DNA of 64,000 bases from a virus: the IMG/VR virus record IMGVR_UViG_3300005264_000001, positions 28,962-92,961 of that record; one strand, given 5' to 3'. The notes beneath the pieces were generated by a model. It ran no database searches, was not told the origin of the DNA, and saw only the letters and a program-made list of their open reading frames with translations. A program made the translations under genes and the position numbers. Shown here piece after piece: positions 6,152 to 63,207 of the stretch (its first letter is position 1; every line of letters begins with the position of its first letter).

Positions 6152-6676
6152 TTATTTAGAATCATTAATAGTGATTCTTGCTTCGTGGTCTGCTAGTGTG
6201 GCTTCAATTTGTTCTAATTTAGTTTTACTAAATGAAGGACTTCCGTCCATATTAATAAATCTATAATCACTACATCTAAAAGTAATAGAATTATCGTCTT
6301 TTAGATGCATATAAGTACCATTTTCTTTTGCTGATACAATATATTCACCTTGTTTTATAGGGAGAACATTATCCGGTGAGCTTGTAAAGTCATCATACAA
6401 ATTACCTAATACAATCGGAGTTGTATTATCTACAAATCCAACTAATACAATATCATTAATTTTAGGTAACATAATTTGACCTTTTAAATTACCCATACCT
6501 AATCCAGCACATTGTACATTATCATATTGTAAATTAAAATTAAGTCTTTTGATATTGACATTTCCTGTTGTAACATTAACACCTGTAACTACATATTTAT
6601 CTAAAGATTTAGTTGATTTGATTTCTTCTTTAATTAGTTCTTTTAGAACTTCTTTAAATGATTTAATAAATTTCAT
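6152..6676 (-). CDS. baseplate central spike (gpV/gp45-like)
   Basis: LPKINDIVLVGFVD..PIVLG OB-fold motif; own late promoter at about 6697-6711. Confidence 0.75.
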   Translation of the reverse strand: MKFIKSFKEVLKELIKEEIKSTKSLDKYVVTGVNVTTGNVNIKRLNFNLQYDNVQCAGLGMGNLKGQIMLPKINDIVLVGFVDNTTPIVLGNLYDDFTSSPDNVLPIKQGEYIVSAKENGTYMHLKDDNSITFRCSDYRFINMDGSPSFSKTKLEQIEATLADHEARITINDSK

Positions 6677-6770
6677 AATAAGATTAATAAAAAATGTTTT
6701 TTAAACTTATTTATAAGTCTTTGTATTGAGAAAAGCAAAGACTTATAAAGGTTCAATCATTACTATTAGT

Positions 6771-7157
6771 ATGGTAAGAGAAAATCACTTTAAGAGTCAA
6801 AAAGTAAGCGAGAGAACAATAAAAATGATGAAAGAATTGTTAAATACAGATATGATTTGGTATGATACAAAAGTTCCAACATACACACAAATCTTTGCAT
6901 GGATTACAGAATTCAGAAAAGATATCGAATTACAATCATTTAGTAAATTTAGAGCAGAACACGATACTCATAATGCATCAGGTAAGATAATAATGAAAAC
7001 AACTAGATGTGATGCTTTTAGATTCACTTTACATATGGGAAATAGATTATTTGTAGAATTTAATAGTGATAAGTGTGATGATGTAACTAGAGCACTCGTT
7101 AGTTTTTTAGCTGGACATAAATCTATGTCTAATTGTTATGAAAAGAGACAATACTAA
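6771..7157 (+). CDS. hypothetical protein (start re-assigned from 6726)
   Basis: ATG 21 nt after the early TATA; the upstream extension in the ORF track is promoter sequence. Confidence 0.7.
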   Translation: MVRENHFKSQKVSERTIKMMKELLNTDMIWYDTKVPTYTQIFAWITEFRKDIELQSFSKFRAEHDTHNASGKIIMKTTRCDAFRFTLHMGNRLFVEFNSDKCDDVTRALVSFLAGHKSMSNCYEKRQY

Positions 7158-7194
7158 ATAAATTTATAAATGATTACAAATTAATAATATTAAA

Positions 7195-7761
7195 ATGGTT
7201 AAATTAATAAAAACATATAAAGGTTTTGAGGTGTATGCATCTCGAGTAGAACAAGATGAAGGAGAGAAAGGTAATGTGTACTTTTTATCGAGCATAAGTA
7301 TACCTAAGAAGCACCCTAGGTATAACACTAAGAATCCATATTTTACAGATGCTGATTTTAATAATGAAGAATATGAGATTGATACATATAGAATTGGGGA
7401 TGTTTGGGGACAAGCAAAGAAATACATTAATAAATTCTTATTAACAAATAAAACAACTACTAAAGAAAGATTGGAAATGTTAAGTGAGAGATTAAATTCA
7501 AATGATTTTAAATTTAAACTTGAATTATCAAGAGAAGGAAAAGATATCTTAAATAAAAAGATTAGTGCTGTTAAAGAACCTGAAGTATTTAAAAAGATAT
7601 CAAATATGAGTAAAGCTATATTTAAAGATGAAGAATCAATCAAGAAGATACCAAATCTAGTATCAGCTTATTTGAAAGGTTCTAGAAAAATGATTGTATT
7701 AGAATTTTTCACAAAAGACAAGAAAAGATATCCAATAACTTATAATATTAAAGAATTATAA
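7195..7761 (+). CDS. hypothetical protein
   Basis: 188-aa ORF with TTTATAAA about 24 nt upstream. Confidence 0.65.
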   Translation: MVKLIKTYKGFEVYASRVEQDEGEKGNVYFLSSISIPKKHPRYNTKNPYFTDADFNNEEYEIDTYRIGDVWGQAKKYINKFLLTNKTTTKERLEMLSERLNSNDFKFKLELSREGKDILNKKISAVKEPEVFKKISNMSKAIFKDEESIKKIPNLVSAYLKGSRKMIVLEFFTKDKKRYPITYNIKEL

Positions 7762-7831
7762 TTTATAAATCTTTATAAACAACAACTAATTTTATCGAAA
7801 GACTTATAAAGGAGTAAGTATTACTATTATT

Positions 7832-8194
7832 ATGGTAAAAAGACAATTAAAAATAAATGACAGTAATAACAAGGAAAACCCAAATCAAAATGTTTGTGCT
7901 ATGATGGTAGCTAAAAGAATCGGTGTTGCTGACCATTCAAGATATTTACATACAATTCAAGATTTAGTGAAAGCATCAAGAAAATTTTTCACTGTTAGAA
8001 GTAGATTGAGTTCTTTAAAAGTTAAGTCTGTTGGTGGTAGTAGAAAACATTGTAAAGCAATCGGAGCAAGATTATACATAGCACATGTTAAAGGTCACGT
8101 TTTACTATTAAATAATGAAGGTAAAACTATTGTTGATACAGCTCCTAGAAAAATTGATAAAAGAAAATTAATTAGCTTTTATGCTATTTTCTAA
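7832..8194 (+). CDS. hypothetical basic protein (Cys...His pair, possible papain-like fold)
   Basis: Early promoter; NVCA and GHVLL motifs; function is a guess. Confidence 0.55.
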   Translation: MVKRQLKINDSNNKENPNQNVCAMMVAKRIGVADHSRYLHTIQDLVKASRKFFTVRSRLSSLKVKSVGGSRKHCKAIGARLYIAHVKGHVLLLNNEGKTIVDTAPRKIDKRKLISFYAIF

Positions 8195-9360
8195 AACTCA
8201 TAAGCTAATTGAGTTTTTTCTTCACCAGCTAATAATTCTGTATTCCACACTCCGTTCTCATCATCGAGTAAAACGTCTTCTGGAAAGTCATTTGCTGAGT
8301 TACTATATCCTGTAATACTACAAGTTACAGCATCACTACCACTTATTTTTATATCTAAAGTTTTGATAATCCAAACTTGACTAGCTGAAATTTTTGGATG
8401 GTCGTGTACTACAAATGTATCACCAACTTGAAAGTTCTTGTCAAAATTGTTTACATCGAACGATACAGTATAATTTTTAGCCATTTCTAACAGCTTAGCA
8501 CGTGCTATTTCACGACATTCCTCCTCTGAGAATACATCTCTTCTAAAGATTGGTAATATGTGTAATCTCTCGATGATTGGTTTAAATCCACCAATTAATT
8601 CAGATTCACGAGCTCCATTTTTAAGTTGATACGCTATTGGGTCAAATGCCAAACCTGTACAATTATTTCCTATAACTTGCACAGCATCATAACTATTTGA
8701 TAAATTTCCTGTGTTTATTTTTTCAATATTTGTATAAGGACTAAATACCCAAGCATCGACACTCTCAGCATTTAAATATTTTGGAAATTGTATCTTTAGG
8801 ACACCTTCTCCTGTTTGAAATATTTGTATTGCGTACTTCTCTTTAATGTTATTTAGTACTTCTCCAAAGTTATCATTATCATCAATCTTTAATTCAACGT
8901 TAGGTGAGATATTATCATCTATTGTATATTTTGGAATGAATCCTTTTAAATCAATATCCTTTTCAGCTTTAGACATTATTGTATCAATACTTCCTGTAAC
9001 ATATTCAACAGGTGCTGGTCTTTCAAAACAAATACCACTTGTAGATTTACAATTAATTGAGTAATGATAACCACTATTATCTTGCCTTAACTCAGGATAT
9101 TCAACATAACCATAAAATACAACTGGCATATTTCTTTCATTATACAACGCCAAATTAGTTTCGTCTATTGTTGTATCAAAATATAATTTAACTAAATCAT
9201 ATTTTTGTATGTTAGTTGTATCTACTTTTCCTTGTTTAAAGAAAGGTAAACTAAAAGATAATGTGTTGATTACATTATTCAAATCAAAACTTGCTGTGAA
9301 GTCATCACCAAAGTTAAAAACTTGGTCACCGATTTGTATTAAATGTTTCGTATATCTCAT
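8191..9360 (-). CDS. baseplate hub protein (gpD/gp27-like)
   Basis: Size and position between tape measure and spike. Confidence 0.65.
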   Translation of the reverse strand: MRYTKHLIQIGDQVFNFGDDFTASFDLNNVINTLSFSLPFFKQGKVDTTNIQKYDLVKLYFDTTIDETNLALYNERNMPVVFYGYVEYPELRQDNSGYHYSINCKSTSGICFERPAPVEYVTGSIDTIMSKAEKDIDLKGFIPKYTIDDNISPNVELKIDDNDNFGEVLNNIKEKYAIQIFQTGEGVLKIQFPKYLNAESVDAWVFSPYTNIEKINTGNLSNSYDAVQVIGNNCTGLAFDPIAYQLKNGARESELIGGFKPIIERLHILPIFRRDVFSEEECREIARAKLLEMAKNYTVSFDVNNFDKNFQVGDTFVVHDHPKISASQVWIIKTLDIKISGSDAVTCSITGYSNSANDFPEDVLLDDENGVWNTELLAGEEKTQLAYEF

Positions 9361-9968
9361 TTGTTAACTCTCTCATCTTGTTCAGTAAAACTCTTATATG
9401 CGTTTGTAAAGAATCCTGTTACACTTGAAATTAATCCTGATTTCTCAGCTCCACCTGTTTGTTCAATTAAATTACCTGTTCTATTATTATAAGTATTCAA
9501 GAATGCTCTTTTACTTGCGAAGTTAATTAAATTAATTGTCAGTATTTTACTTACAACATCTTTTGCTTCGATAAGTGTTAAACTTCCTATTTTCTCATAA
9601 GGATTAGGTTGATTAGTCACAAATACAGGTTTACTAATAAAGTACCTATTTGACGACGTGGGATTGTTATACGGTGATAAAAACTCTACAGTTTCTCCAC
9701 TTTTAACTAAGTCAAATAAAAGATTTTTCTTTCTTTCTAAATCGTCAATATCATCACCAATTAATTTTACATCGATTGGTATTTGTATTGTTTCGATTCC
9801 ATTGTTGTAAACTACAGATGAGTTCCCACTTGCAGCTTCTCTTATGATTATTCTATTATTTACAGACTCTGTAAAAGATTGAACATATCCCATTTCAATA
9901 AATTCATCATCTTTCTTAGTATTTATATCATGTGTTCTCACTAATTTAAATTTACTTTCTACTACCAT
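9357..9968 (-). CDS. tail tube initiator-like protein
   Basis: Directly downstream of the tape measure gene. Confidence 0.5.
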   Translation of the reverse strand: MVVESKFKLVRTHDINTKKDDEFIEMGYVQSFTESVNNRIIIREAASGNSSVVYNNGIETIQIPIDVKLIGDDIDDLERKKNLLFDLVKSGETVEFLSPYNNPTSSNRYFISKPVFVTNQPNPYEKIGSLTLIEAKDVVSKILTINLINFASKRAFLNTYNNRTGNLIEQTGGAEKSGLISSVTGFFTNAYKSFTEQDERVNK

Positions 9969-11215
9969 TATCTAACACCACTTAAATCTCTAGCCATTAC
10001 ATCAGCAAATCCTGCTGCTCCTGCTCCACTTATTTCTCTTGAAGTGTGAACATTCACATTATTTACGTGTGAGACAGCTTGTCTCTCTCTTGCTGAACTT
10101 CTAAGACTACTCTTTGAATCTTCATCCACGTTTTTCTCTTCTCTTACAGTTATCGTTTTATCATCACTTCCACCAAATATTTTATCAAACCACTCCCCTA
10201 CTTGTTTAATAGGTTCCCATAGAGCCCAAACAATAGCCACAAGTGCTGCAACTCCCATAATTACCATTCCTAAAGGATTAGCATTTAAAGCAAAGTTTAA
10301 CAACCATTGAGCAGCTGTCCAAGCATGAGTCATAGCAATTATTCCTAAACCTACAGTTTTGTAAATTGCTAATGGAACTAATACAACACCTAAGATTTTT
10401 CCGAAGTTTTTCATTACATCTATTCCATTTTTAGTTGTTCCAAATAAGTCTTGTAACACTTCACCAACTGCTTGACCGATGTCTAAGATTGGACCTAATC
10501 CTATCATGAATCCTTCAGCAATTCCTGAAGCTAAATCTACAATTCCATTTAGTATACTAAATATTGGTCGTAATACAATATCAATTAATGGACTTATCTT
10601 TCTTAATGCTTTTGACATTATCGTCCCAAATCTCGACATACTACCTTTTAAATTACCCATGAACCCGTTCCATTTAGTTTGAATTCCTCCAACATTGACG
10701 TCCCAAGCTTTCTTTAATGATTTAAAAGCAATAACTCCAACAGCTGCAATTCCTGCAATCACTGTTCCCATCATTAAAAGTTTTGGTAAAACTGTTTTTA
10801 CTTTTAAAAGTAGACTTGAAAAATTCATATTTACAAGTCTAGAACCGTCATCAGCAATTATGAAAGCATCAGCTGCCCCTGCTAAACTAGTAGCAAAACC
10901 TACTCCATTTTCTCTCATAGCTTTAAAATTTTCAGAAGCATTTTTACTTCTATCACTAACACTAGATAAAAATCCTTTTGTGTCTTTATTTAGTAATGTA
11001 TTCAATGCTGTTACTTTTGCTCCCATACTTTCTAATTTATATATAATATTAGAAGCAGGCGATGATAAATCGGATAATGCACTTTTAGTTTTATCTAAAT
11101 TCTTTGTAAAATCTGAATTTTGTCTTGCTTGTGATATTTTATCATTTAAACTACCAACTTTACTAGACAAAGCTCCAAATCCTTTTTCTCCAAATACTAT
11201 TTCAAACATTCCCAT
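9968..11215 (-). CDS. tape measure protein (short, 415 aa)
   Basis: Helical, Gly/Ala-rich; AWTAAQWLLNFALNANPLG motif; follows the chaperone. Confidence 0.85.
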   Translation of the reverse strand: MGMFEIVFGEKGFGALSSKVGSLNDKISQARQNSDFTKNLDKTKSALSDLSSPASNIIYKLESMGAKVTALNTLLNKDTKGFLSSVSDRSKNASENFKAMRENGVGFATSLAGAADAFIIADDGSRLVNMNFSSLLLKVKTVLPKLLMMGTVIAGIAAVGVIAFKSLKKAWDVNVGGIQTKWNGFMGNLKGSMSRFGTIMSKALRKISPLIDIVLRPIFSILNGIVDLASGIAEGFMIGLGPILDIGQAVGEVLQDLFGTTKNGIDVMKNFGKILGVVLVPLAIYKTVGLGIIAMTHAWTAAQWLLNFALNANPLGMVIMGVAALVAIVWALWEPIKQVGEWFDKIFGGSDDKTITVREEKNVDEDSKSSLRSSARERQAVSHVNNVNVHTSREISGAGAAGFADVMARDLSGVR

Positions 11216-11216
11216 T

Positions 11217-11432
11217 TTATTCTTTATTTTCCTCCCTTTGTATCAATAACCAATCTGCAAATAATTCGTATATTTCTGACCACGTATGATTTTCTAAAAT
11301 TTCAAAACGTGTTTTTTGATATGCTATTGCAACTCTAGCTAAGATATATTCTTTGTAACTTCTCCTTTTATCTAAATGTGGTTGAAAAGTTTTGAGGATG
11401 TCAACATCCCCTGAACCACTTAATCTAAAAAA
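11217..11432 (-). CDS. -1 frameshift extension of the chaperone (gpGT-like)
   Basis: ATG-less open frame of about 69 codons from the slippery site to a TAA 1 nt before the tape measure ATG. Confidence 0.75.
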   Translation of the reverse strand, partial: FFRLSGSGDVDILKTFQPHLDKRRSYKEYILARVAIAYQKTRFEILENHTWSEIYELFADWLLIQREENKE

Positions 11433-11722
11433 TCTATATCCTCAGTAACTACATTATAAGCTAATGCTAATCTACTAATGATACCTTCACCTAATTCATA
11501 AAATTCATCTTCTTTTAATGTTGAATCTTTAAGTGCCCAAAATAATTTAACTAACTCTGGTGATTCTTTAATTTCAGCTGCTCTTGTTTTTACTTGAGCT
11601 GCTAATTTTCCTGATAATTCTTTAAGAGTATATTCTACTCCTCTAATAGTCGCTGTAACACTTCCATCACTATTTACTTTTGTAAATTCTTTAACCTTTG
11701 ATTTTAAATTTGTAACTTCCAT
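11420..11722 (-). CDS. tail assembly chaperone (gpG-like)
   Basis: Between tube and tape measure; ends in slippery T TTT TTA. Confidence 0.75.
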   Translation of the reverse strand: MEVTNLKSKVKEFTKVNSDGSVTATIRGVEYTLKELSGKLAAQVKTRAAEIKESPELVKLFWALKDSTLKEDEFYELGEGIISRLALAYNVVTEDIDFLD

Positions 11723-11727
11723 TTTAT

Positions 11728-12144
11728 TTATTCTGTTTCTCTAAAGTCTAATGCATCAAATGGCATACTTGACTTTGCTTCATCTGCTAATCCTACGGAC
11801 CATGTATAGTTCTTAAATACTGCTGATTTAATACTAATTCTTACAGGTCTTCCATTCTTTGAAACTACTCCCATTAAATTAAATTCTGGATTATCTCCTT
11901 CATCTAAATCTAGTAAATGTTTTACTGGTTCTAAGTCTAAACTTGAAATATCACAACTTCCACTTACTGACATTACACCTTTATTATGTGCTACGTTTTT
12001 CTTACTTCCTGCTTCTCCGATAAGTTTATTATCCCAAGCAACTTCACAAGAAAGAGAATTAATTCCTCCTACTCTTATGTCTCCTTTATCTTTTGTTTCA
12101 AAAGTGATAGTCATGTCTGTTAAATTATATGCTTTTTTACTCAT
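11728..12144 (-). CDS. tail tube protein
   Basis: 138 aa, beta-rich, immediately after the sheath. Confidence 0.75.
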   Translation of the reverse strand: MSKKAYNLTDMTITFETKDKGDIRVGGINSLSCEVAWDNKLIGEAGSKKNVAHNKGVMSVSGSCDISSLDLEPVKHLLDLDEGDNPEFNLMGVVSKNGRPVRISIKSAVFKNYTWSVGLADEAKSSMPFDALDFRETE

Positions 12145-12145
12145 T

Positions 12146-13492
12146 TTAGTTTACCTCCAATGTAATATATGATTTGTTTACAGCGTAAAATGGTGCAATC
12201 TTTACAATCCATTTAACTGCGTCTGCTCCGTCAACATCTTCTGATTGTGTTGGTAAGAACGCTTTTAGTAATTCGTTACTAACTAAACCACTTAGAATGT
12301 TATCCATTGACATAGCGTGTTTAATTCTATTTTTTGTACTATCAGGACTTCCTAAGATTTGTTCATCTGAATAATTTTGTAATAGTTGTTTAACTGAATA
12401 TACAATATCTGTAATTACTTGTTCAAATGCTGGACTTGTCTTATCACTAAAACTTGTTATAGCTCTTGATACTTTAAATACATTTTGATATTTTCCAAAT
12501 GGGATTAATCCAATACTTAAATAATTATCTTGTTCTAACTTAGTTAATGATTTTTCAATTCCTTCATTTTTAAATTCTTTCATTGTTGTACTTACACCTA
12601 AACCATAAAATGTTACCATTCCAGCGTAACCACAAGCAGAATATGAAGCATCTAAATGTTCAACAGCATTTGAGTTACTTTTATTTGTGTAATCACACCC
12701 AAGTGCTAATCTTGAAATCATTTCACCATTAGCTGTTCTTGCTTCAGATACTGAAAAGTCTTCTGCTAATGTAATTCCTGTATAGTATTGTGAAAATTTC
12801 TTCTCTAAATCAGCTCTCACTATTAATTTTCCTACGATTGTATTATGAAAGGCATCTGTTGTTTGTCCTGGAATCAATAATACATCATAATCAACTAAAT
12901 TTAAACTATCAACTGCTGTTAAAATTTCAGTTTCTGATGGTGCTCTATCTGTTCCTCCTGCTAATTGAGTAGTTGTGAAAGGTCTTACAAGATTATCTAC
13001 TGCACCACTTCTCACAGTTACATTAACCCATTTACTAACACTTAATTTAGTTACAAGGTCTGAATTTTTAACAACTCCTGTATAAATTTCAACTGAATTT
13101 CCAAACTTCACTGTTACGATTCCACTTACTGCGTCAATCTCAACTGTATATTTATTTCCTAATGTTCCCTCAGTAATTGCATCAAATACAACATCTCCGG
13201 ATTCCACTGATAATGTAGCTTTTGTACTTCCTGAACCGGCTACTCTTTTAAATTGTAATCCTGAACCAAAGTTACTAAAGAATTGTTTCACAGCTTTTAC
13301 TCCTGTTAAACCTCCTGTATTATCATCACTTCCAAATTTATTAGCAAAATCACTTTCTCCAGTGATTGGTGTTAATTCATCTATAATTCCTGAATTAGCA
13401 GTTCCTAACATAATTGTTTTTCTTGTACTAACTCCTTGCGCCAGACTTTGTAAAAAGACTGTACTTATTTTTGTTTCTGGTAAATATTCCAT
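12146..13492 (-). CDS. contractile tail sheath protein
   Basis: A..EG..GN.Y.VEI and LAGGTD motifs; C-terminal KIAPFYAVNKSYITL. Confidence 0.85.
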   Translation of the reverse strand: MEYLPETKISTVFLQSLAQGVSTRKTIMLGTANSGIIDELTPITGESDFANKFGSDDNTGGLTGVKAVKQFFSNFGSGLQFKRVAGSGSTKATLSVESGDVVFDAITEGTLGNKYTVEIDAVSGIVTVKFGNSVEIYTGVVKNSDLVTKLSVSKWVNVTVRSGAVDNLVRPFTTTQLAGGTDRAPSETEILTAVDSLNLVDYDVLLIPGQTTDAFHNTIVGKLIVRADLEKKFSQYYTGITLAEDFSVSEARTANGEMISRLALGCDYTNKSNSNAVEHLDASYSACGYAGMVTFYGLGVSTTMKEFKNEGIEKSLTKLEQDNYLSIGLIPFGKYQNVFKVSRAITSFSDKTSPAFEQVITDIVYSVKQLLQNYSDEQILGSPDSTKNRIKHAMSMDNILSGLVSNELLKAFLPTQSEDVDGADAVKWIVKIAPFYAVNKSYITLEVN

Positions 13493-13495
13493 TTT

Positions 13496-14107
13496 TTAAT
13501 TTTCTGTTTTTACTTCGATTCTAGAATCTGTTATTAGTTTTCCAGCAATTCCTGTAATAGGGTCTGCTTTTCCGTAAACTCTTTTCCACGTTTCCATGTA
13601 TTCAACTCTATATTGTAATCTTGATGTCCAAAAATATTTCCCGTCATCAAATGATTTCTCTTCATTAATTAAATCAAAATCATAAAAGATATCTTTCCAC
13701 TCATCTAATGTTGAATTTACAAGATAACTTACAATTCCTTTTACATATTCATTTGCTGCTTTTCCGTATATTGTGTGAACACTTTCATCTGGTAGAGTTA
13801 CAGTAACAACTTTATCTTTATTTCTATGAGTATATACCCATAGATTCATTTTTGTTCTATATCTACGTCCGTATGTTTCTTCTATGGTACCGTCTGTATT
13901 GTGTACAATACATAAAAAATTATCATCACCTACTGGAACATACTCTCCATCTTCTGAAAGTTCATATGTTACTTGTGGTAAGTTTGCCTTAGTCTCTGGA
14001 TATGTCGGATAAAACCATCTAGACCCTATATTAAAAGGGTTTGCATATTCTTTTACTAAGTCTTCCATCTTGAAGACTACATCTACATTTGTTATTCCTG
14101 TTTCCAT
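13496..14107 (-). CDS. tail terminator / neck protein
   Basis: Upstream of the sheath; YP....LP.V pattern. Confidence 0.5.
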   Translation of the reverse strand: METGITNVDVVFKMEDLVKEYANPFNIGSRWFYPTYPETKANLPQVTYELSEDGEYVPVGDDNFLCIVHNTDGTIEETYGRRYRTKMNLWVYTHRNKDKVVTVTLPDESVHTIYGKAANEYVKGIVSYLVNSTLDEWKDIFYDFDLINEEKSFDDGKYFWTSRLQYRVEYMETWKRVYGKADPITGIAGKLITDSRIEVKTEN

Positions 14108-26638: not shown

Positions 26639-27688
26639 TTATTTTATTAATACTAAGAACTCTTTTCTTACATTAATACTAAATTCTTCTCCTTTTTCCA
26701 AAGAGTCAAACTTTGATTCATATTTTGAGAATACTTTTTCGACTGAGCGTTTGATATCTCTCAATTTATAATCCTTTTGAAATTCTTGGGCTAAACTTTG
26801 ATAACATACAGCGACTAGTTCAGATAAAGATTTGCTATGCATAGCAAATCCAGAGTACTTAAAAAAATATTTCTTACCTGGTGCATCTTTTCTTTTTATA
26901 GACACAGTATTTATAGTAGATAATTTTTCTTTAAATCCATCTTGTAATCTTTCGATTAAATTTTTAAGTCTTTCGTTTGTTTCTTTATAACTCAAATTAT
27001 GTTGGTCAAATACAGATTTTAATTTCTTATCAAATCCTTTAACTTTAACATTATTTCTCTTTTTCCATAATCCGTTTAATACACCTGCTCTCTTAGTCTT
27101 TTTTAAACTTCCTATATGTTTGTTTAGTGACTTAAAGAAGAGTCTTATAAACGTCTTAGAAACGGGTCTAAATGAACTATTAGCACCATTACTAACGAAT
27201 GTAGCAAAGTCTGCAATATCTTTTGTTAATTCTTTCTTTTGTTTGTCATTTAGTTCAGCACCTGGGACTGGTTTATATAAATAATCATGTGATAGTTCAT
27301 AAGCCACAGTATGTAAGAATGTTCTTACTTGTACTTCTACTTGTCCTAAATTGTGTTGAACAACTCCTGCGTAGTCAGGTCTAGGATTTACAATGTAATC
27401 TGATGTAGTTGTAATTAAGTCTTTGAATATCTCTTTAATTCGACCGGCAATCACTTTATATCTACTCATGTTATCAATGTGAATTCTAAATCCAAATAAA
27501 TCTCCTAAATCTTCTAATTTTCTATATTTATCAGGTTTGGTTTTAATTTTGTTTAATGCTGAGTTTAAATCTTTTGCTCTATAAGTATAAGTAGTACCGT
27601 CTAATTTTCCTAATCTTTTTCTAATCTCTGGAATAATTGTAGAGTTTAGATTTTTCATCAATTTATCATAATCCTTCTTATTCGCCAT
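26639..27688 (-). CDS. RelA/SpoT-domain small alarmone synthetase (SAS/toxSAS-like) with C-terminal extension
   Basis: RAKDLNSALNK, DLFGFRI, DYIVNPRPDY and EVQVRT...H..LYK motifs. Confidence 0.85.
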   Translation of the reverse strand: MANKKDYDKLMKNLNSTIIPEIRKRLGKLDGTTYTYRAKDLNSALNKIKTKPDKYRKLEDLGDLFGFRIHIDNMSRYKVIAGRIKEIFKDLITTTSDYIVNPRPDYAGVVQHNLGQVEVQVRTFLHTVAYELSHDYLYKPVPGAELNDKQKKELTKDIADFATFVSNGANSSFRPVSKTFIRLFFKSLNKHIGSLKKTKRAGVLNGLWKKRNNVKVKGFDKKLKSVFDQHNLSYKETNERLKNLIERLQDGFKEKLSTINTVSIKRKDAPGKKYFFKYSGFAMHSKSLSELVAVCYQSLAQEFQKDYKLRDIKRSVEKVFSKYESKFDSLEKGEEFSINVRKEFLVLIK

Positions 27689-39120: not shown

Positions 39121-39420
39121 TTATAAAGATTTGTATTTAAACCCATAAATATATTTAGATGAACTCTTTGAATTTTCCCAATTATCACAAGTACGATATT
39201 GTCTTACTTTGCTAATATTATTTGCTTTATTAAATTCCTCAATCTTGTCTTCAGGAAGTGTTATTTTTCTCTTATGTGAAATTACAATTAAATATCTACA
39301 TCCCATTATCACCTCAAAATTAAAATATAATCTTTCAAAAAATGTATAGTTGATATTAAAATACTTACATATATCTTCAGGAGTTATTTCAACAATTTCC
39401 TCTATCTTAATCTTAGCCAT
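39121..39420 (-). CDS. hypothetical protein
   Basis: TAATG coupling to rtcB; its stop is the TATA of the next promoter. Confidence 0.55.
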   Translation of the reverse strand: MAKIKIEEIVEITPEDICKYFNINYTFFERLYFNFEVIMGCRYLIVISHKRKITLPEDKIEEFNKANNISKVRQYRTCDNWENSKSSSKYIYGFKYKSL

Positions 39421-40538
39421 TATGCTTTTATATTAAGCACAGGCTTAACCCTCCTTAAAATAGTCGCTGTTGGTTCAATAGCGTCTTCAATTACTTTTGC
39501 ATCTTTATAAGCATTAGGTGCCTCGTCAAGAGTACTTTGTGATATACTTGTACTATACACATTAGCATCTTTCATTTGAGTTTGAAATTCTTCTAAACTT
39601 AATTCTCTCTTAGCTTTTGCTCTTGAATACAATCTACCAGCTCCATGTGGTGCTGAATTATTCCAATCAGGATTACTTTTACCTTCACAAATTAAAAGAC
39701 CATCCTTCATATTAAAAGGTATAACCATTTTCTCACCTACGTATGAACGAATAGCTCCCTTTCTAATAATACCATCTCTAAAATCCATAAAGTTATGAAC
39801 TGAGGATATACGTTCTGTTTCATGTACAACTTTAAAATCAAACACTTCTTTTAACATAATATTTATCATTTCTACTCTATTTAAATCAGCATATTCTTGA
39901 GCGATTGACATATCATACAAATAATCTGAACTATCTTCCTCAGATAAGAACGCTAACTCTTTACAAGTTTGAGTTTTATCTGTTTCAATAGCTATCTTTT
40001 GCCAATAGTCACAAACTTCTTTACCAAATCTTCTACTTCCTGAATGTACAGTCAACCAATAGTCACCAGTCTCATCTTTACCTAACTCAATAAAGTGATT
40101 ACCACCTCCAAGTGTTCCAATTTGTTTTAGTACATTACTTGTCTCTAATTTATTAATCTTCTTACAAATTAAATCAATTTGTCCATAAGTTCCCATATTT
40201 ACATTTGTTTCTTTTTCCTTACTCTTAAATCCAAGTGGTACATATTTTCTAATTAAAATATCTGTGTCTTTTAAGGTCAATGGTATATGTTTACCTATAT
40301 TTACAGATAGAACCCCACATCCGATATCTACAGATATCACGTTGGGACAAACTCTCTTTCCTATTGGACAAGTAAATCCAATAACACTACCTTTCCCCAA
40401 ATGACAGTCAGGCATTACTTTAATAGGAACATCTTTGAAATGTTCTACATTACAGAGACTTTGTATTTGTGAGTAAGTCGCTGCGTCAATATCTTCTGTC
40501 ATTACTTTTGCTGTGTTGTATTTTCCTTTAATTTCCAT
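39420..40538 (-). CDS. rtcB: RtcB RNA ligase
   Basis: MPDCHLGKG, VDIGCG, GTLGGGNHFIE, HSGSR, HN, RKGA, SAPHGAGR and DEAPNAYK motifs. Confidence 0.95.
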   Translation of the reverse strand: MEIKGKYNTAKVMTEDIDAATYSQIQSLCNVEHFKDVPIKVMPDCHLGKGSVIGFTCPIGKRVCPNVISVDIGCGVLSVNIGKHIPLTLKDTDILIRKYVPLGFKSKEKETNVNMGTYGQIDLICKKINKLETSNVLKQIGTLGGGNHFIELGKDETGDYWLTVHSGSRRFGKEVCDYWQKIAIETDKTQTCKELAFLSEEDSSDYLYDMSIAQEYADLNRVEMINIMLKEVFDFKVVHETERISSVHNFMDFRDGIIRKGAIRSYVGEKMVIPFNMKDGLLICEGKSNPDWNNSAPHGAGRLYSRAKAKRELSLEEFQTQMKDANVYSTSISQSTLDEAPNAYKDAKVIEDAIEPTATILRRVKPVLNIKA

Positions 40539-42287: not shown

Positions 42288-42698
42288 TCATTCTTCTTTA
42301 TCCTCTTTGTTATGATATAAATCTATATTTTTAATGTTCTTACTTTTTAACCAATCATCATGTGCTTTCCAAAACAATTCCTCGTTTAATTTTAATGCTA
42401 CTTGTATTGCTCCATTATTAAGTGCGTGATTTTTATTAGATATTCTTTGTTCTTCATCTATTCTCTTTTTCCACTTTTCCTCAAATGTTAAATCATCTTC
42501 TTTATCTACTAAATTTTCTTTTACAAATTGACCTAATTCAAAAGCCTTTTCTGCAATCCTTCTTATATAAAAGTCCTCATCTTCTTTAAATTGGAATGAA
42601 CTTCCAAATAGATATTTTTTAAAACCAAATAAACCTTTAGTTTCAAATAAATCATTGTTTGTTAATTCAAATATCTCGTCTTTATTTAATTTTCTCAT
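42288..42698 (-). CDS. hypothetical protein
   Basis: ATGA-coupled ORF. Confidence 0.55.
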   Translation of the reverse strand: MRKLNKDEIFELTNNDLFETKGLFGFKKYLFGSSFQFKEDEDFYIRRIAEKAFELGQFVKENLVDKEDDLTFEEKWKKRIDEEQRISNKNHALNNGAIQVALKLNEELFWKAHDDWLKSKNIKNIDLYHNKEDKEE

Positions 42699-44089
42699 TC
42701 GTCTAACCCTCTATGAATAGTAACAAATTCTTTTAATTTTTCAAATTCATTCTCAATTTCACCATCACAAACCATTTCAAATAATGGTTCTAAGATTTCT
42801 TTAAACTCTGGACCTGGTTTCATACCCAGCGCAATTAAATCTTTACCTCCAAATTTCATATCCCCAATTTTAAAAGGTGTTTCTTTTTCTTTCAATTCGT
42901 AAAACTTCTTAATTATTTTGTTACCGGCATTAAATATTTCTAAACCTGTAACTTTCTCAAAAACTTTAACTACACTTTCACTTAGTTTAATTGGATTCTT
43001 CTTTTTATTTCCATGACAATCACAAAAGATAAGACTTCCTAATTCTTCAACAGTTACACCATTTTCTTCTAGTTCATTAAATAATTTAATATAAGTATTG
43101 GTTTTAATTGGATTACCTTCAATCATATATCCAAACATATGTCTTCTAATTAAACAATGAACATAATTAATTTCTTCAGTACTTGCTCCAAGATGTTTCA
43201 ACATATATTTCTTCATCAAACTTGCACCTTCTTTTTCATGACCATAAAAATGTGTACCTGTAACAAAATCATGTGTTCTAGTTCTAGCTTTTCCAATATC
43301 ATGAAATAAAGCACTCATAATAAATAAAGGATTATTTGAAATCTTTTGAGCTTCTTGCATTGTATAAATACAGTGTTCTCTTGGTGTTTCGTCATGAAAA
43401 TCTCCACCATCCATTTCCATTTCAGTTCTAAACCAAGTTAAAGGAAACATCTCACTAGCCCAGTATTTAATATGTTTCTCTTTTAAATAAGGTAATACTT
43501 TTTTAAATGAAATCCAAGTTCTTTCTTTTGCAACTCCACTAGTGTCAAACTCTTCAATAGCTTTTAATGTTTCTTCTTCAATATCAAAGCCTAATCTATC
43601 AGCTTGTTCTAAGTATCTGAAATATCTCCCATCATCTTCATTTAATCTATCTCTGGGTTCTCCAACAGCTCTTACAATTTTATCTCTAATATCTTCTAAC
43701 CCTTGGTAATTAAACGCATTACTAGAATGTATAATTCCATCACTTTTACAACATATACAATTCATAAACGCGTCGCAGGTTGCTTGATGTTCAAAAATAT
43801 CATTTCCAACTTCTTTTCTATCACCACTATTTCTATATTGAGAAATTTCTGTATCATCTACGATTACAGTTAGAATCTTTTCTTGTCTTTCTTCTCCACC
43901 AATAACTTTACCTTGTGGAAATACTTTTAGAATATCTGAACAATTTGTAAAGAGGTCAAAATCATGTGGTTCTATCTCTAATAAACTATCACGAATTGCA
44001 CCACCTATCAAAAATACCTCGAAACCTTCAGCTTCAAGTGTCTTCATCATGTCTTTAACTTTGTTTGGTATTACGATTTTTTTCATCAT
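42695..44089 (-). CDS. cca: class II tRNA nucleotidyltransferase (CCA-type) with HD domain
   Basis: GGAIRD...DFDL, EDDGRYFR, LFHDIGK, HFYGHE and GKDLIALG.KPGP motifs. Confidence 0.85.
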   Translation of the reverse strand: MMKKIVIPNKVKDMMKTLEAEGFEVFLIGGAIRDSLLEIEPHDFDLFTNCSDILKVFPQGKVIGGEERQEKILTVIVDDTEISQYRNSGDRKEVGNDIFEHQATCDAFMNCICCKSDGIIHSSNAFNYQGLEDIRDKIVRAVGEPRDRLNEDDGRYFRYLEQADRLGFDIEEETLKAIEEFDTSGVAKERTWISFKKVLPYLKEKHIKYWASEMFPLTWFRTEMEMDGGDFHDETPREHCIYTMQEAQKISNNPLFIMSALFHDIGKARTRTHDFVTGTHFYGHEKEGASLMKKYMLKHLGASTEEINYVHCLIRRHMFGYMIEGNPIKTNTYIKLFNELEENGVTVEELGSLIFCDCHGNKKKNPIKLSESVVKVFEKVTGLEIFNAGNKIIKKFYELKEKETPFKIGDMKFGGKDLIALGMKPGPEFKEILEPLFEMVCDGEIENEFEKLKEFVTIHRGLDE

Positions 44090-47165: not shown

Positions 47166-47705
47166 TTATAAATCTTTGTGTTTATAAGTTCTTACAATTT
47201 CAGTTTGTACTCCAATAATGTGTGATTGTTTCTCACTCATTCCATGTTCCATATGAATTCTTTTAATTTCATGACAATAACCATTATTTAAATCATTAGC
47301 AACAACATTGTTTAAAGTATTCAACTTCATTACAAATTCTTCAGTAAACTTTTCTTTTAATTCATATTCTTTAATCTTAGTTTTTTGATTTCCTAAAATA
47401 CCTTTAAGACTTTTAATATCTTTTTTTAACTTCTTAACCAGTAAATAATCATCTACACCTTCACGAGCATCAGCTTTTTCTAACTCTTCTTGAGGTCCCT
47501 CATTTTTAAACATACAATCTTCCCACATCCAAGAATTACCTCTAACTTTATAAAAGTCACCATTACATTCTTCTATGATTAATTTAGTGTTACAAAAATC
47601 AAACATTTCACTTCCCAAACCATGTGTACTAGTTTTCTCTACACTATTTAGTTGTGCTCTACTCTTAATTGTAACTTCGTCTCCTGGTTTATATTTTAAT
47701 ACCAT
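47166..47705 (-). CDS. hypothetical protein (SH3-like N-terminus plus coiled coil)
   Basis: KYKPGDEVTIK...WMWEDCMF. Confidence 0.55.
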   Translation of the reverse strand: MVLKYKPGDEVTIKSRAQLNSVEKTSTHGLGSEMFDFCNTKLIIEECNGDFYKVRGNSWMWEDCMFKNEGPQEELEKADAREGVDDYLLVKKLKKDIKSLKGILGNQKTKIKEYELKEKFTEEFVMKLNTLNNVVANDLNNGYCHEIKRIHMEHGMSEKQSHIIGVQTEIVRTYKHKDL

Positions 47706-47988
47706 AATAATATAGAATCAATTTGTATTTATAAGTGTTTGTATAGAATATGTATTGTTAAAATTAGTGGGTTGACTAGACCCACATGAATATTTATTAA
47801 AATACCCAAAAAGATAAAAACGTATTGTTACAATATATAACAATAATATAATAGAATTAAAATCTCTTTTTAAATATATTTAGAATAAACAAAATTATTA
47901 ATAAGTTTGTCCGAACTTCTGCTCCCACCTCATCGGGCTACTAACAAACGAACGCACAAACATGTCAAAGTTTGTTGCAACAAACCTC

Positions 47989-48075
47989 TACCTTGTACGG
48001 GATTTGAACCCGTGACCTCTCCGCAACATTAGCTAAATGTCTATGGGATGCTCTACCAAACTAAGCTAACAAGAC
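47989..48075 (-). ncRNA. tRNA-like RNA with extended anticodon arm
   Basis: GTCTTGT/ACAAGGT acceptor, D arm, ACGGG-TTCAAAT-CCCGT T arm; 30 nt in place of the 17-nt anticodon arm. Confidence 0.65.
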
Positions 48076-48083
48076 AATATAAA

Positions 48084-48161
48084 AGTACCCGACAGGAATT
48101 GAACCTACACATCTTCCACAACACAAAGGTGGATGCTTTACCTTAATTAAGCTACGGGCAC
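48084..48161 (-). ncRNA. tRNA-like RNA with 9-nt anticodon loop
   Basis: GTGCCCG/CGGGTAC acceptor; TCCAC/GTGGA stem closing loop CTTTGTGTT. Confidence 0.7.
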
Positions 48162-48168
48162 AAAACAC

Positions 48169-48268
48169 GAGGGTTAGGAGTTTAACCTAACTCGGATAAC
48201 TAGTATGTCCTTAAAATCAAACACAACTACTCAGCTAATTACTTCCTTTTGTTGCTGAAATTCCTCTC
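48169..48268 (-). ncRNA. degenerate cloverleaf-like RNA
   Basis: TTAGG-TTAAACT-CCTAA T-arm-like hairpin plus two stems; weak acceptor. Confidence 0.3.
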
Positions 48269-48378
48269 ACCATAAATGAGAGTTTAAGGTACTCTCAAAC
48301 CTTTGTATTTTAAACCCAAGACGAGTGTGATTCTGGCTAAACTTATCAATAACAAATCACAAATTATTGAAGCACATT

Positions 48379-48455
48379 TTAAAAGAGTGAGAATCGAACT
48401 CACGTCTACAAAGATTTTCCATCCCTGCCACATTTCCATAGTATGCTACCTTTTC
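48379..48455 (-). ncRNA. tRNA-like RNA with 8-bp anticodon stem and 5-nt loop
   Basis: GTGAG-TTCGATT-CTCAC T arm; GCAGGGAT-GGAAA-ATCTTTGT arm. Confidence 0.6.
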
Positions 48456-48470
48456 ATTATATTATTTTAT

Positions 48471-48581
48471 CGAAGTCGGGTAGATTACGAACTACCATCT
48501 TGGCTTAACCCCAAAGTCTTTAAGTACTAATTATCACTTTGTTGATGTTAAGTTGCTCTACGTATATTGAGCTACGTCCCC
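48471..48581 (-). ncRNA. tRNA-like RNA with long insert in the anticodon arm
   Basis: GCTC/GAGC D stem, GGTAG/CTACC T stem; nested CTTAAC/GTTAAG and CAAAGT/ACTTTG helices. Confidence 0.6.
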
Positions 48582-48765
48582 ATTATAAAGTTAAGTTTAA
48601 GGTTCTTCAACCGTCGAAATCTTTGTCTATTTTCAAAATGATTGAGTATAAAGGTCTCCACCTTATTTAGCGTAATTCATATTGGCAAATATACATACAC
48701 ACAAGTTGAGAAGTTCTGGCTAGAGAACGTTTTCTCATCTCATACTAATAAGAATGATTAACCAT

Positions 48766-49416
48766 TTATAAGTCTTTCGATATATTCAATGTTTCTAGCA
48801 TATAAGCGTTACAATTAAATTTTATACTATTTAAACAATCTTCCTCTGTGATTCTTTTTAAGTTTTCACTTTTATCTGTAGTAATAACTTCAGTTAATTC
48901 GTCTTCATTTCTAAGATAATGTTTAAATACTTGACCCTCGTGTCTTTCTTCATATACAACATAACCACAATAAATAGCTCTCAAATCTTCTGTATGTCTG
49001 ACTAAACTTTGAATTACAGTGTCTTTACCAAATCCACCAAACCAATTATTAGCACTACGAAGTGTACCGTCTGGCATTTTTCTATGTGAATGCATATAAT
49101 CAGCAAATGATTTCTCTATTACAGGATGTTGAAAACCAACATAATCTAATTTACCTTCTGAGGTGTCTCTAATAGCTCCTCCTGTAAATGTTCTAATTTC
49201 TGATTTAGTTTCTTCATCCTTTATCATCTCATCACACAAAAACATTTCAATCCCTGAAGATATTACAGTTCCAGAATATAAATCAGAACTTACTGAATCT
49301 ATTCTTACAAGTTTACCACTTGATTCTTCTTGAATTTTTGATATTTTAATACAACCAACAACATCATGTCTTATCAATTTAGCTAACAATACAATATCAT
49401 TTACTTTATATTTCAT
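48766..49416 (-). CDS. DUF5664-like dATP/dGTP diphosphohydrolase-domain protein
   Basis: RTFTGGAIRDTSEGKLDY, NNW..G and SLVRH motifs. Confidence 0.65.
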   Translation of the reverse strand: MKYKVNDIVLLAKLIRHDVVGCIKISKIQEESSGKLVRIDSVSSDLYSGTVISSGIEMFLCDEMIKDEETKSEIRTFTGGAIRDTSEGKLDYVGFQHPVIEKSFADYMHSHRKMPDGTLRSANNWFGGFGKDTVIQSLVRHTEDLRAIYCGYVVYEERHEGQVFKHYLRNEDELTEVITTDKSENLKRITEEDCLNSIKFNCNAYMLETLNISKDL

Positions 49417-52704: not shown

Positions 52705-53484
52705 TTAATCAAACACCTTCTTATATTTATTTATGTTCTCACAATATTCTTCATAACTAATCTCTTCTAAATTAGACCTATCCCAACGATTATAGCTTAT
52801 TTCTACTTGTCCATCATATTTTTTATGACCATACTTACTAAAACTAAACATAGATGAATATACACTCCAAGTATCAAACTGAATTCTATCAATTTTACAT
52901 ACTCCTAAAATGTCAGCACATTCCTCTTCCTCATAATACTCATCATCTTTATCAACTAAAACTCTAAAATATTTACCATAGTATTTCTCATTTAGTTTTT
53001 CAAATTTTTCTTTCTTTTCAATAATAAAATATTGATTACTTCTACTCAATTTCTCTACATCAACTGTAACGTCATCCAGAGAACCACATTTCTCTAAAAT
53101 CTTTTCAAAACAAATCTTTTTCTTAGTTTCAAATTCTTCAGGTTCTATAACTTTTCCTTGTCTTACATTACCATCTCTTAGACTAGTATTCTCAGAATTA
53201 CTAAAATCAAAGTTGTCTCCTCTAACATCTAATCTCTCACAATCACATCTTACAGTATCACTGTCAAAAGAAGCCTCAGGTTTAAAATATAATTTAGTAA
53301 TCTTAATAATACTACCTGAACCATCATTGAACACATTCTTATAATAGAACGGTAATTTAGTATTTTCCCATCTTTCTATCATACGTTTACAATCAGCTTT
53401 TCTTCTTAAATCACTATCATTTCTTTCTGCTGCTTTCTCTTCTTGTAATCTTACCTTTGTTTTTTCTATATTTTTAAATTCCAT
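52705..53484 (-). CDS. hypothetical protein
   Basis: TAATG-coupled to the hydrolase gene. Confidence 0.6.
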   Translation of the reverse strand: MEFKNIEKTKVRLQEEKAAERNDSDLRRKADCKRMIERWENTKLPFYYKNVFNDGSGSIIKITKLYFKPEASFDSDTVRCDCERLDVRGDNFDFSNSENTSLRDGNVRQGKVIEPEEFETKKKICFEKILEKCGSLDDVTVDVEKLSRSNQYFIIEKKEKFEKLNEKYYGKYFRVLVDKDDEYYEEEECADILGVCKIDRIQFDTWSVYSSMFSFSKYGHKKYDGQVEISYNRWDRSNLEEISYEEYCENINKYKKVFD

Positions 53485-53921
53485 TATTCACTCCTCCAGA
53501 ATTTACTTTTAGTTAAATAAGCATCTTGTCTTTTTTCATCCCAAACACTCATTGTACTTAGATTTTGAGCTCTATCACAAAATTTAATCATAATAGCTTC
53601 AGGTGATTCAAGTCTAGGAAATGTTTTCTCTCCATTTTCATTCTTATCTTTAGTCAATTCTAAAACAAGATTTCTAACTCTTAACCCAAACATTTGAAAT
53701 AACTGTAAAGGAGTTACATCACAATCTTCTAATACGTCATGTAAATAAGCCGCAGCAATTATATTTTCATTATCAGTTAATCCAGCAACCATATCTCCAA
53801 CTACTTTTACATGGGTCTCATAATAACTTTGCCCACCGTCTCTTAATTGTCCTTTATGCATCTCTTGTGCAAAATCTTGTGCTTTCTCAACCATACTTTG
53901 TGTTATAATCATACTTTCCAT
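53484..53921 (-). CDS. Mesh1/SpoT-type HD small alarmone hydrolase (SAH)
   Basis: A...HKGQLR, Y..H, AAAYLHDVLED, V..LTKD and IKFCDRAQN motifs. Confidence 0.9.
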   Translation of the reverse strand: MESMIITQSMVEKAQDFAQEMHKGQLRDGGQSYYETHVKVVGDMVAGLTDNENIIAAAYLHDVLEDCDVTPLQLFQMFGLRVRNLVLELTKDKNENGEKTFPRLESPEAIMIKFCDRAQNLSTMSVWDEKRQDAYLTKSKFWRSE

Positions 53922-60961: not shown

Positions 60962-61906
60962 ATGGAAGAATCAATTCATAAATTTGACAAGATAAAAAGA
61001 GAAGGAGCACAAAAAGCTAGTAACTTTACTCCTGATGAAGATATTTACAAAACTGAAAAAGTAGATGGGGCAAACGCAAGATTCTTTAAAGGAACAGACC
61101 CAGTTGAAATAAGATTTGCTACAAGAAATACTGTATTTGTTTCATCTAAACATACTGATTATAAAGCAGATGGTTATGGAAGTTTTCAAGTAGCAGTAGA
61201 TTATATTAATAATCATTTAACAGTTGATGACTTAGAAGATGATAAAATTTACTTTGGTGAATGTATGACTAAACATTCTATTAATTATGATTGGTTAAAT
61301 TCTCCTCGATTCATTCTATTTGATATTTATGATACAACAAACAAAACATATTTACGATTAGATAAACTTAGAGAATTTACATCAAAACATGATATGGAAC
61401 TTATACCTGTATTATTTGAAGGTAAATATAAAGATATGCCTACAGATATTCCACAATCTAAATATGGAAATGTACAAGCAGAAGGTTTTGTAATCAAACC
61501 ACAAGAGTGTTCTTATGATGTTACAGGAAATATTCACAGAGCAAAAGTAGTAGGTGAACAATTCAAAGAAGCAAAGAAAGAAGCATGGGGTTCTAGTGGA
61601 AATCCAGTAGAAAGATTTTGTAATAAGTTCTGTACAGTTGCGAGAATTGACAAACTATTACACAAGTTAGTAGATTATGGTGCATTAGAAGATTTAGAAG
61701 AAATGTCTATCTTAAAAAAGATTGGTTTAATTGAATATGAATTATCAAAAGATATTTGTACAGAAGAGTTCAAAGCATTAAGAAAATTAGGAGTAATTAA
61801 TTTCGCTGAAATCAAAAGAGAAGTTATCATAAGAATTAAAAGATTTATTTCATACGTTCCACCTGAAAATAAGATTGAATTAAACACACAAACGAAAGAC
61901 TTATAA
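60962..61906 (+). CDS. ATP-dependent RNA ligase (Rnl2-like)
   Basis: TEKVDGAN, FGE, FILFDI, EGFVIK and AKVV motifs; C-terminal T..RI domain. Confidence 0.85.
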   Translation: MEESIHKFDKIKREGAQKASNFTPDEDIYKTEKVDGANARFFKGTDPVEIRFATRNTVFVSSKHTDYKADGYGSFQVAVDYINNHLTVDDLEDDKIYFGECMTKHSINYDWLNSPRFILFDIYDTTNKTYLRLDKLREFTSKHDMELIPVLFEGKYKDMPTDIPQSKYGNVQAEGFVIKPQECSYDVTGNIHRAKVVGEQFKEAKKEAWGSSGNPVERFCNKFCTVARIDKLLHKLVDYGALEDLEEMSILKKIGLIEYELSKDICTEEFKALRKLGVINFAEIKREVIIRIKRFISYVPPENKIELNTQTKDL

Positions 61907-62500: not shown

Positions 62501-62572
62501 AGTCCTTTGGTGTATCAGGAAACACGTAGGTCTTTGGAACCTTCACGGGGAGTTCGAGACTCTCAGGGACTA
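62501..62572 (+). tRNA. tRNA-Gln(UUG), A1:U72, no encoded CCA
   Basis: Full cloverleaf AGTCCTT/AGGGACT; loop CT-TTG-GA. Confidence 0.9.
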
Positions 62573-63101: not shown

Positions 63102-63207
63102 ATAGAAGTCAATTCTTATATATTATAAGTTGAAGATTGTGGGTTCAAGTCTCATCTGATGCTCTTTAAAGGGAATGTGATGCCTTTTCAATCCAAACCA
63201 CAATATT

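Follow-up and report, generated by a model that had tools for sequence, protein, structure and literature searches.

A predicted early operon of tRNA-like elements with aberrant anticodon arms in the virus genome IMGVR_UViG_3300005264_000001

The genome considered here, IMG/VR virus record IMGVR_UViG_3300005264_000001, is 92,961 bp long, with 28% GC, direct terminal repeats and approximately 90% coding sequence. The window that was analysed is a 64-kb stretch of it (bases 28962-92961 of the record), and coordinates below are window positions unless another record is named. An open reading frame (ORF)-free stretch of 1,060 nt at 47706-48765, the largest in the genome, lies between ORFs at 48766-49416(-) and 47166-47705(-) and holds a cluster of five tRNA-related units, which follow a promoter in the order A, B, E, C, D (Table 1). 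This appears to be an early-transcribed operon of tRNA-derived genes, in which B resembles tRNA-Phe(GAA), C resembles tRNA-Thr(UGU), and the origin of A and D is unclear. The virus encodes a tail sheath and a baseplate wedge protein and is therefore contractile-tailed. Its DNA was contained in only one sequencing run, a marine-sediment metagenome, which is probably its source, and there was no RNA run among the sequencing runs listed as containing viral DNA.

A sequence-only reading of this DNA had placed an early promoter at 48765-48777 on the minus strand, and this held: the site is an exact copy of the 13-mer AAAGACTTATAAA, which occurs 18 times in the genome and usually stands 21-22 nt upstream of a leaderless ATG. 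Because the 13-mer recurs in this way, and because TATA-like words peak genome-wide at -28/-27 from first-gene ATGs, the early promoter is a copy of the recurrent cassette of this genome. The upstream ORF ends in a TAA (48768-48766) that falls within the TATA-like part of this promoter, and the block at 48781-48733 shares 86% identity over 49 nt with the block preceding the tRNA-Gln transcript. The operon would be transcribed from this cassette, judging by its sequence, and carries ATG AGA TGA (48743-48735) at the distance from the promoter at which the ATG of leaderless genes is found. A conserved ATGAG(A/T)TGA-like word begins non-coding RNA units at 48743-48735, ~62318 and ~63127, each time in the leaderless-ATG position; the word is either an initiator element or a mini-ORF of three codons. 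GC content is 39-45% in the elements, 0% in the short linkers and 32-34% in the long spacers, and no K-turn or C/D-box motif was seen on inspection of the locus by eye.

Table 1. Features of the tRNA-like cluster and related genes of the virus (window positions).
Feature	Position	Strand	Description
RelA_SpoT-type small alarmone synthetase (SAS)	26639-27688	-	Sits in head module
RtcB RNA ligase	39420-40538	-	PF01139, E=7e-59; nearest atlas clusters bacterial
Class-II CCA-adding enzyme with HD domain	42695-44089	-	PF01743, PF01966, PF13735; PHROG tRNA nucleotidyltransferase
Structured 3' trailer	47900-47988	-	9-bp hairpin directly after the discriminator of D, second hairpin next
Element D, tRNA-like	47989-48075	-	RF00005 41.7 bits; 7/7 acceptor stem including two G.U; CCA not encoded
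D anticodon arm, 29 nt	48020-48048	-	2-3 basal pairs, internal loop, 6-bp hairpin GACAUU/AAUGUU, 5-nt loop
Element C, tRNA-Thr(UGU)-like	48084-48161	-	RF00005 48 bits; CCA not encoded
C anticodon arm, 19 nt	48115-48133	-	5 bp and 9-nt loop CUUUGUGUU
Spacer, 217 nt, holding E (48165-48275)	48162-48378	-	Three repeat blocks colinear with leader and A
Element B, tRNA-Phe(GAA)-like	48379-48455	-	RF00005 29.7 bits; CCA not encoded; D and T loops intact
B anticodon arm, 21 nt	48408-48428	-	7-bp stem and loop UGGAAAA; anticodon GAA; G33
Element A, 111 nt	48471-48581	-	Minimum free energy and centroid folds the same four-arm cloverleaf; CCA not encoded
A anticodon arm, 49 nt	48504-48552	-	6 bp, 5x2 internal loop, 6 bp, 18-nt loop
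Leader, 162 nt	48582-48743	-	Start predicted from promoter spacing alone
Early-class promoter 13-mer AAAGACTTATAAA	48777-48765	-	Exact copy; 18 occurrences in genome
HD_4 (SpoT-like) hydrolase	53484-53921	-	Among early-class genes
RNA ligase	60962-61906		PF09414
tRNA-Gln	62501-62572		A1:U72, GGTGTA D arm; AGTCC..GGTGTA type

Four clear cloverleaves and a weak one had been described at the locus. Three of the four clear elements, B, C and D, are recognised by the Rfam tRNA covariance model (RF00005, gathering cut-off 29 bits), with which the ordinary tRNAs of the virus, Leu(UAG) and Gln(UUG), score 59 and 42.9 bits. The fourth, A, is supported by its minimum free energy fold, a topology with no occurrence among 1,500 shuffles. 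The weak unit, E, gave no match to RF00005 and has no tRNA model behind it; when ARAGORN is run at relaxed settings, other loci yield 2-7 spurious calls per 10-20 kb. A strict cloverleaf descriptor matched only B and C, and it proved brittle and unusable because it yields approximately 0.45 matches per simulated genome.

The bodies of B, C and D retain U8, A14, G18G19, A21, G53:C61, a TTCRA T loop, A58 and nearly all stem pairs. In B the acceptor stem carries a G1xA72 mismatch and the discriminator is A73; C has a G3:U70 pair and discriminator U73; D has canonical D and T arms and discriminator A. The acceptor stem of A is paired at six of seven positions (A5xA68 is mismatched and G3:U70 is present), and this element retains U8, A14, A21 and G53:C61.

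As the sequence-only reading had stated, the anticodon arm is aberrant in all four clear elements, each exceeding the canonical 17 nt (Table 1). In the covariance-model alignment the arm takes up 13 nt in B where 9 are expected, and 27 nt in D where 13 are expected. For B an 8-bp stem with a GGAAA loop had been proposed; the hairpin is the same, with seven pairs and a wider loop, U32-A38 having been counted as a pair. The 9-nt loop reported for C does hold nine unpaired nucleotides, and CUUUGUGUU is readable as an unpaired C/U layer enclosing a 7-nt loop UUUGUGU, with anticodon UGU, G37 and U38. Both 7-nt readings of the D loop have A34 (anticodon AAU or AGC), and position 37 is U. None of A-D combines the 5-bp stem, 7-nt loop, U33 and purine 37 of a functional decoder. 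The structure is real, unusual and for the most part correctly described; taken as a whole, the original observation is partly confirmed and its first interpretation partly supported.

The loops of B and C bear on whether these two elements are working decoders whose alterations (G33 in B; the extra layer and G37 in C) evade host anticodon nucleases, with A and D as relics. Both keep 7-nt loops with sensible anticodons, GAA and UGU. ARAGORN calls C as Thr(tgt), position 37, at default settings, and with -ps80 it calls B as Phe(gaa) in another register, with a canonical 5-bp/7-nt arm and a poor D stem. The discriminator of C also fits, U73 being a threonine identity element in haloarchaea. To our knowledge, however, U33 is near-universal in decoding tRNAs and A37 (as t6A) is universal for readers of ANN codons, and a stem that is one or two layers longer displaces the anticodon. 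The G1xA72 mismatch of B tells against this explanation too, as does G3:U70 in C, which is the alanine identity pair and could lead to the wrong amino acid. Thr tRNAs have A37 and A38 where C has G37 and U38; they need A37. The modification t6A requires 36-UAA-38 (PMC13276492). Evasion of this kind has been proposed for other phage tRNAs (PMC10264068, PMC11464382), and the RtcB-carrying virus IMGVR_UViG_3300002220_006617 has two tRNAs with 9-nt anticodon loops starting UGG (UGGUAUACA and UGGCAACUU, positions 8358-8435 and 8921-9014 of that record) beside normal ones. On balance, we regard decoding by B and C as improbable. Since G3:U70 is found in both A and C, charging with alanine would be possible whatever the arm, and these two elements might be so charged irrespective of it.

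Unit E is a truncated paralogue of the leader plus A, in which the first ~21 nt of A are missing. The leader contains TAGCCAGAA (48722-48714) and ACCTTAAACT (48603-48594), and both recur in the spacer between B and C; the two occurrences of TAGCCAGAA in the 64-kb window are those in the leader and the spacer. A 22-nt direct repeat stands just upstream of the A unit and of the E unit (local alignment p=0.014), and a 33-nt block that runs from the D stem of A into its arm insert is shared with E (local alignment p=0.009). From the three shared colinear blocks and the truncation of E it follows that the locus grew by tandem duplication, and the blocks common to A and E place the long insert of A before the duplication, with one copy having decayed since.

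This shared sequence could be taken to mean that the tRNA-like bodies are handles by which RNase P and RNase Z release small RNAs from the leader, the spacer or the arms, in the manner of herpesvirus tRNA-miRNA units or T4 RNAC and RNAD. The 162-nt leader and the 217-nt spacer share the three colinear blocks, and a block CAACAAA..TAATTAG within the arm of A persists in E despite the loss of the tRNA body there. The 3' trailer is structured as well (fold z = -2.31, with 4 of 200 shuffles equally good). The folds of the leader (z = -0.45) and spacer (z = -0.30), however, are not special, no Rfam family matches, and the shared block does not keep its structure between A and E. Moreover, the D arms are intact, though neither RNase P nor RNase Z needs them. 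Release of small RNAs from such handles is accordingly very unlikely. The trailer itself may, from its modelled fold, be a terminator or a stability element; copies of the promoter follow it at ~47879 and ~47745.

The extra arm sequence also raises the question of introns. The sequence-only reading could fit no canonical bulge-helix-bulge (BHB) intron, and we reached the same result: a strict scan for the geometry of 3-nt bulge, 4-bp helix and 3-nt bulge (checked against PMC4090602) found none in A-D, and a manual check for the relaxed half-motifs hBH and HBh' was equally negative. The best BHB-like match of the region lies in E within the spacer, and 73% of 200 simulated sequences gave one at least as good; the viral genome encodes neither a splicing endonuclease (EndA, PF01974) nor an archease. 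The suggested RtcB/Rnl2 splicing route is therefore disfavoured, and splicing of A-D is unlikely.

A variant of this idea dispenses with the canonical motif: the insertions would be non-canonical introns, cut out by a host or unknown viral endonuclease, and the exons rejoined by the viral RtcB. The presence of RtcB is in its favour, and if 32 nt were taken out of A, or 11 nt out of D, at the 31/32 junction, the loops that remain would have Y32, U33 and R37; in A the result would be a Pro-like loop, UUUGGGG, to which no splice motif fits. Further support comes from IMGVR_UViG_3300002220_006617, a GC-richer and unrelated virus with a tRNA cluster directly upstream of RtcB, in which a tRNA-Thr(UGU) at positions 7504-7657 carries an 83-nt insertion with a near-canonical BHB. 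Yet no BHB or half-motif fits A-D, the best match in the region is at chance level, and the virus lacks EndA and archease. In addition, the spliced anticodon of D, AAU, would carry A34, the excess of B (4 nt) and of C (2 nt) is shorter than any known intron, and a loop-like 7-mer beside a stem has an estimated chance of ~0.1-0.4 per element. Non-canonical introns thus appear highly improbable.

Searches for relatives returned distant homologues. At the DNA level there was no match in the phage collection, and element C gave only short, generic tRNA matches. The best protein identities were 36-44% in the phage collection and IMG/VR, where a close relative is absent. Among viral contigs, the upstream ORF had one homologue (36%) and the exonuclease two (38%), none with a tRNA nearby; protein searches of the same contigs with the downstream ORF and the tail sheath gave no homologue, and the viral RtcB reached at most 44% identity. 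The closest relative of the exonuclease (61% identity) is encoded on a 2-kb Logan contig. Homologues of the upstream ORF were present at 27 loci in metagenome contigs, none of which had an adjoining tRNA-like cluster; one low-GC contig has such a homologue together with a tRNA, a canonical tRNA-Thr(UGU) at contig positions 1807-1877. The upstream ORF itself (48766-49416, minus strand) encodes a member of a small family of uncharacterised proteins in which many residues are invariant (QSLVRH.EDL, NNW). The metagenome members of this family are 135-149 aa long and 46-55% identical; relative to these, the protein of the virus has an additional N-terminal part of ~70 aa.

Unusual tRNA genes were also observed in other viruses. 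In the GC-rich virus IMGVR_UViG_3300023440_000001, a tRNA-model match of 37 bits at positions 1501-1624, which ARAGORN does not call, has 63 nt in the anticodon arm where 11 are expected. In an AT-rich phage (G006, 28% GC) that also has RtcB, the stretch 4263-14006 contains an 81-nt 'tRNA-Stop(tta)', whose anticodon arm is odd, and five tRNA-Glu(CUC)-like genes that resemble one another. Within the present genome, an orphan T arm followed by a 3' acceptor-like strand (GTGGG TTCAAGT CTCAT CTGATGC, 63139-63162, plus strand) opens the tRNA-Leu transcript. A split-tRNA reading of this T arm (63139-63155) was rejected, as the genome contains no matching 5' half; the T arm could represent a minihelix or one more tRNA relic.

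Taking the cluster as a whole, we favour, tentatively and with less than even confidence, the reading that A-D are tRNA-shaped, non-decoding stand-ins in a conflict over host tRNAs. The earlier suggestion of non-decoding tRNA mimics is plausible in light of the over-long arms, G33 in B, G37 and U38 in C, A34 together with U37 in D, and the intact bodies of B-D. That B, C and D retain all tertiary-contact nucleotides suggests that selection acts on the shape of a tRNA and not on its decoding; selection on shape is somewhat more likely than pure decay. Each of these three elements has at least two lesions within the 17-nt anticodon arm, where uniform neutral decay would put about three times as many lesions in the body as in the arm. 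Furthermore, the elements are GC-richer than their surroundings, they follow an exact-consensus promoter, and they occupy the largest non-coding stretch of a compact genome.

These same features tell against the rival that ranks close behind, namely that the cluster consists of former decoders (Phe, Thr and others) which have suffered anticodon-arm indels and, while still transcribed, are drifting neutrally toward deletion. The concentration of lesions in the arm, the intact stems and tertiary-contact nucleotides in the bodies of B, C and D, the GC content, the intact consensus copy of a dedicated promoter and the 1,060 nt given over to the region are all awkward for decay, which we consider possible rather than probable. 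Nevertheless, pseudo-tRNAs are common in phage tRNA clusters, and the scores here form a gradient, from C (48) through D (41.7) and B (29.7) to A, which is not found, and E, which is truncated. The sequence-only reading had held that base pairing was kept in the altered arms and that simple decay was thereby made unlikely. Against shuffled sequences, arm stability bears this out in B (p=0.0005) and marginally in C (p=0.045), whereas the helices of A (p=0.10) and D (p=0.12) lie within chance, so that the argument is weak for these two, and E is visibly decayed.

The chance-level arms of A and D count for decay and weigh against the stand-in reading, as do several other observations. A is unmatched by RF00005 even at E<=10 (131-nt search), lacks G18G19 in its D loop and has a T loop of 8 nt (UUCGUAAU). 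The acceptor stems of A and B contain mismatches, and the arm aberrations differ from element to element, so that a common design is absent. The dead paralogue E implies that the locus tolerates junk. No orthologous cluster was found in the phage collection, viral contigs or metagenome contigs searched, and where a low-GC metagenome contig pairs the upstream-ORF homologue with a tRNA, that tRNA is canonical. Detection is also biased, as the tRNA model tolerates insertions chiefly in the anticodon arm and hence favours intact-looking bodies. Finally, the host nuclease or toxin target that the stand-in reading calls for is a hypothetical one.

If A-D do act as stand-ins, the RNAs would first adopt the tRNA L-shape and be excised by the tRNA end-processing enzymes of the host. 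The viral CCA-adding enzyme would then be needed to supply CCA, because no element encodes it. Normal decoding would be prevented by anticodon arms that exceed the canonical length by 2-32 nt and by changes at key positions of the loop. In a conflict over the host tRNA pool, the products could then act as decoys that soak up body-recognising host nucleases or 3'-end-modifying toxins; alternatively, B and C could serve as substitutes resistant to cleavage. Everything past folding in this scheme, namely transcription, processing, CCA addition and decoy action, is what we infer. It has a basis in biology elsewhere, in that phage tRNAs neutralise tRNA-cleaving defences (PMC11464382, PMC11555353, PMC10264068).

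The decoy and scaffold ideas draw on genomic context only. The CCA enzyme, RtcB, the PF09414 ligase, the RelA_SpoT-type SAS and HD_4 share the viral genome, and from their predicted domains they would together form a toolkit to repair broken anticodon loops as well as 3' ends that have been damaged or modified. A stronger form of the stand-in reading holds that the bodies are under selection and the arms were deliberately lengthened, making A-D dedicated decoys that titrate body-recognising effectors (anticodon nucleases or CCA-end-modifying toxins), possibly in an archaeal host; this we consider rather unlikely. More speculatively still, the UGGN start of the B loop, like that of the two odd tRNAs of IMGVR_UViG_3300002220_006617, might pair with NCCA 3' ends of tRNAs in a T-box-like manner and so shield them.

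An archaeal host is slightly favoured over the alternatives. The promoter geometry matches archaeal transcription, in that a TATA-like box precedes the leaderless ATG by 21-22 nt; two promoter classes share the same spacing, and Shine-Dalgarno-like motifs occur only before internal genes. The A1:U72 tRNA-Gln was considered as proof of an archaeal host and rejected: when species genomes were scanned for its pattern, this type turned up in Bacteroidota, Verrucomicrobiota, Lentisphaerota and Ignavibacteria as well as in Archaea, and the viral tRNA is about equally distant from the bacterial and archaeal groups. It therefore cannot by itself assign the virus to an archaeal host. Other traits lean towards bacteria, as the clusters nearest to RtcB are bacterial, the CCA enzyme is of the bacterial class, and RelA_SpoT and HD_4 are of kinds typical of bacteria. 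The polymerase belongs to family A and has a gp44-like clamp loader, and the sliding clamp, of the viral gp45/PCNA kind, is uninformative on host domain. A candidate PriS-PriL primase was dismissed, having no Pfam family.

Among known systems, the closest in theme are the phage tRNAs that act against host defences: the tRNA-Lys of T5 against PARIS (PMC11464382), a phage tRNA-Tyr against retron Eco7/PtuAB (PMC11555353), and the tRNAs of the anticodon-loop mutation hypothesis (PMC10264068). Like A-D, these are virus-encoded, have anticodon stem-loops unlike those of the host and occur alongside RNA repair genes, and they act in a conflict over the tRNA pool such as is proposed for A-D. However, they keep the canonical 5-bp/7-nt arrangement and still decode, whereas here the arms are over-long, U33 or A37 is replaced and decoding is doubtful. 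Archaeal BHB pre-tRNAs (PMC4090602) and the tRNA-Thr(UGU) of IMGVR_UViG_3300002220_006617 likewise have extra sequence in the anticodon arm and RtcB in the genome, but A-D have no BHB, hBH or HBh' motif, their insertions are on the 5' side of the loop, and the would-be spliced loops are not all canonical. The cluster resembles phage tRNA pseudogenes in its low-scoring cloverleaves, its defective anticodon loops next to good tRNAs and its one truncated unit (E). It differs from them in that three of the five units are damaged in the anticodon arm alone, with their tertiary-contact nucleotides fully intact, and a dedicated consensus promoter is present.

In phage T4, the RNAC and RNAD genes are located in the tRNA gene cluster. 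As far as they can be likened by description only, they share with A-D the character of non-tRNA small RNAs among viral tRNA genes, presumably co-processed; they are late, in contrast to an operon with an early-class promoter. The tRNA mimics, including transfer-messenger RNA (tmRNA), the bacterial Y RNA YrlA and the tRNA-miRNA units of the herpesvirus MHV68, also have a tRNA-shaped domain that is processed or recognised as a tRNA while there is no anticodon decoding. Compared with these mimics, the hairpins of the present elements are inside the arm and not downstream. T4 RNAC and RNAD have been described as stable small RNAs with 'yet unknown functions' (PMC9697503), and YrlA as a tRNA mimic (PMC4201824).

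Two such identities were tried and rejected for the cluster itself. The tmRNA family reached 18.1 bits against a cut-off of 47, on B plus the A-B linker with only the T arm aligned; there is no tag frame in the region, and ARAGORN finds no tmRNA. A Y RNA of the YrlA kind was set aside as well, the genome having no Ro60/TROVE gene and no Rfam match to YrlA.

The purpose of viral tRNA genes, and of the odd tRNA-like RNAs found in their clusters, has been an open question since T4. In the cluster described here, three units keep the tRNA shape and only the decoding arm is spoiled, and the surrounding genome encodes a complete set of tRNA healing functions. If the elements are functional, they would extend the idea of tRNA-based counter-defence from resistant decoders to pure decoys; if they are decaying, they would offer a clean snapshot of viral tRNA gene death.

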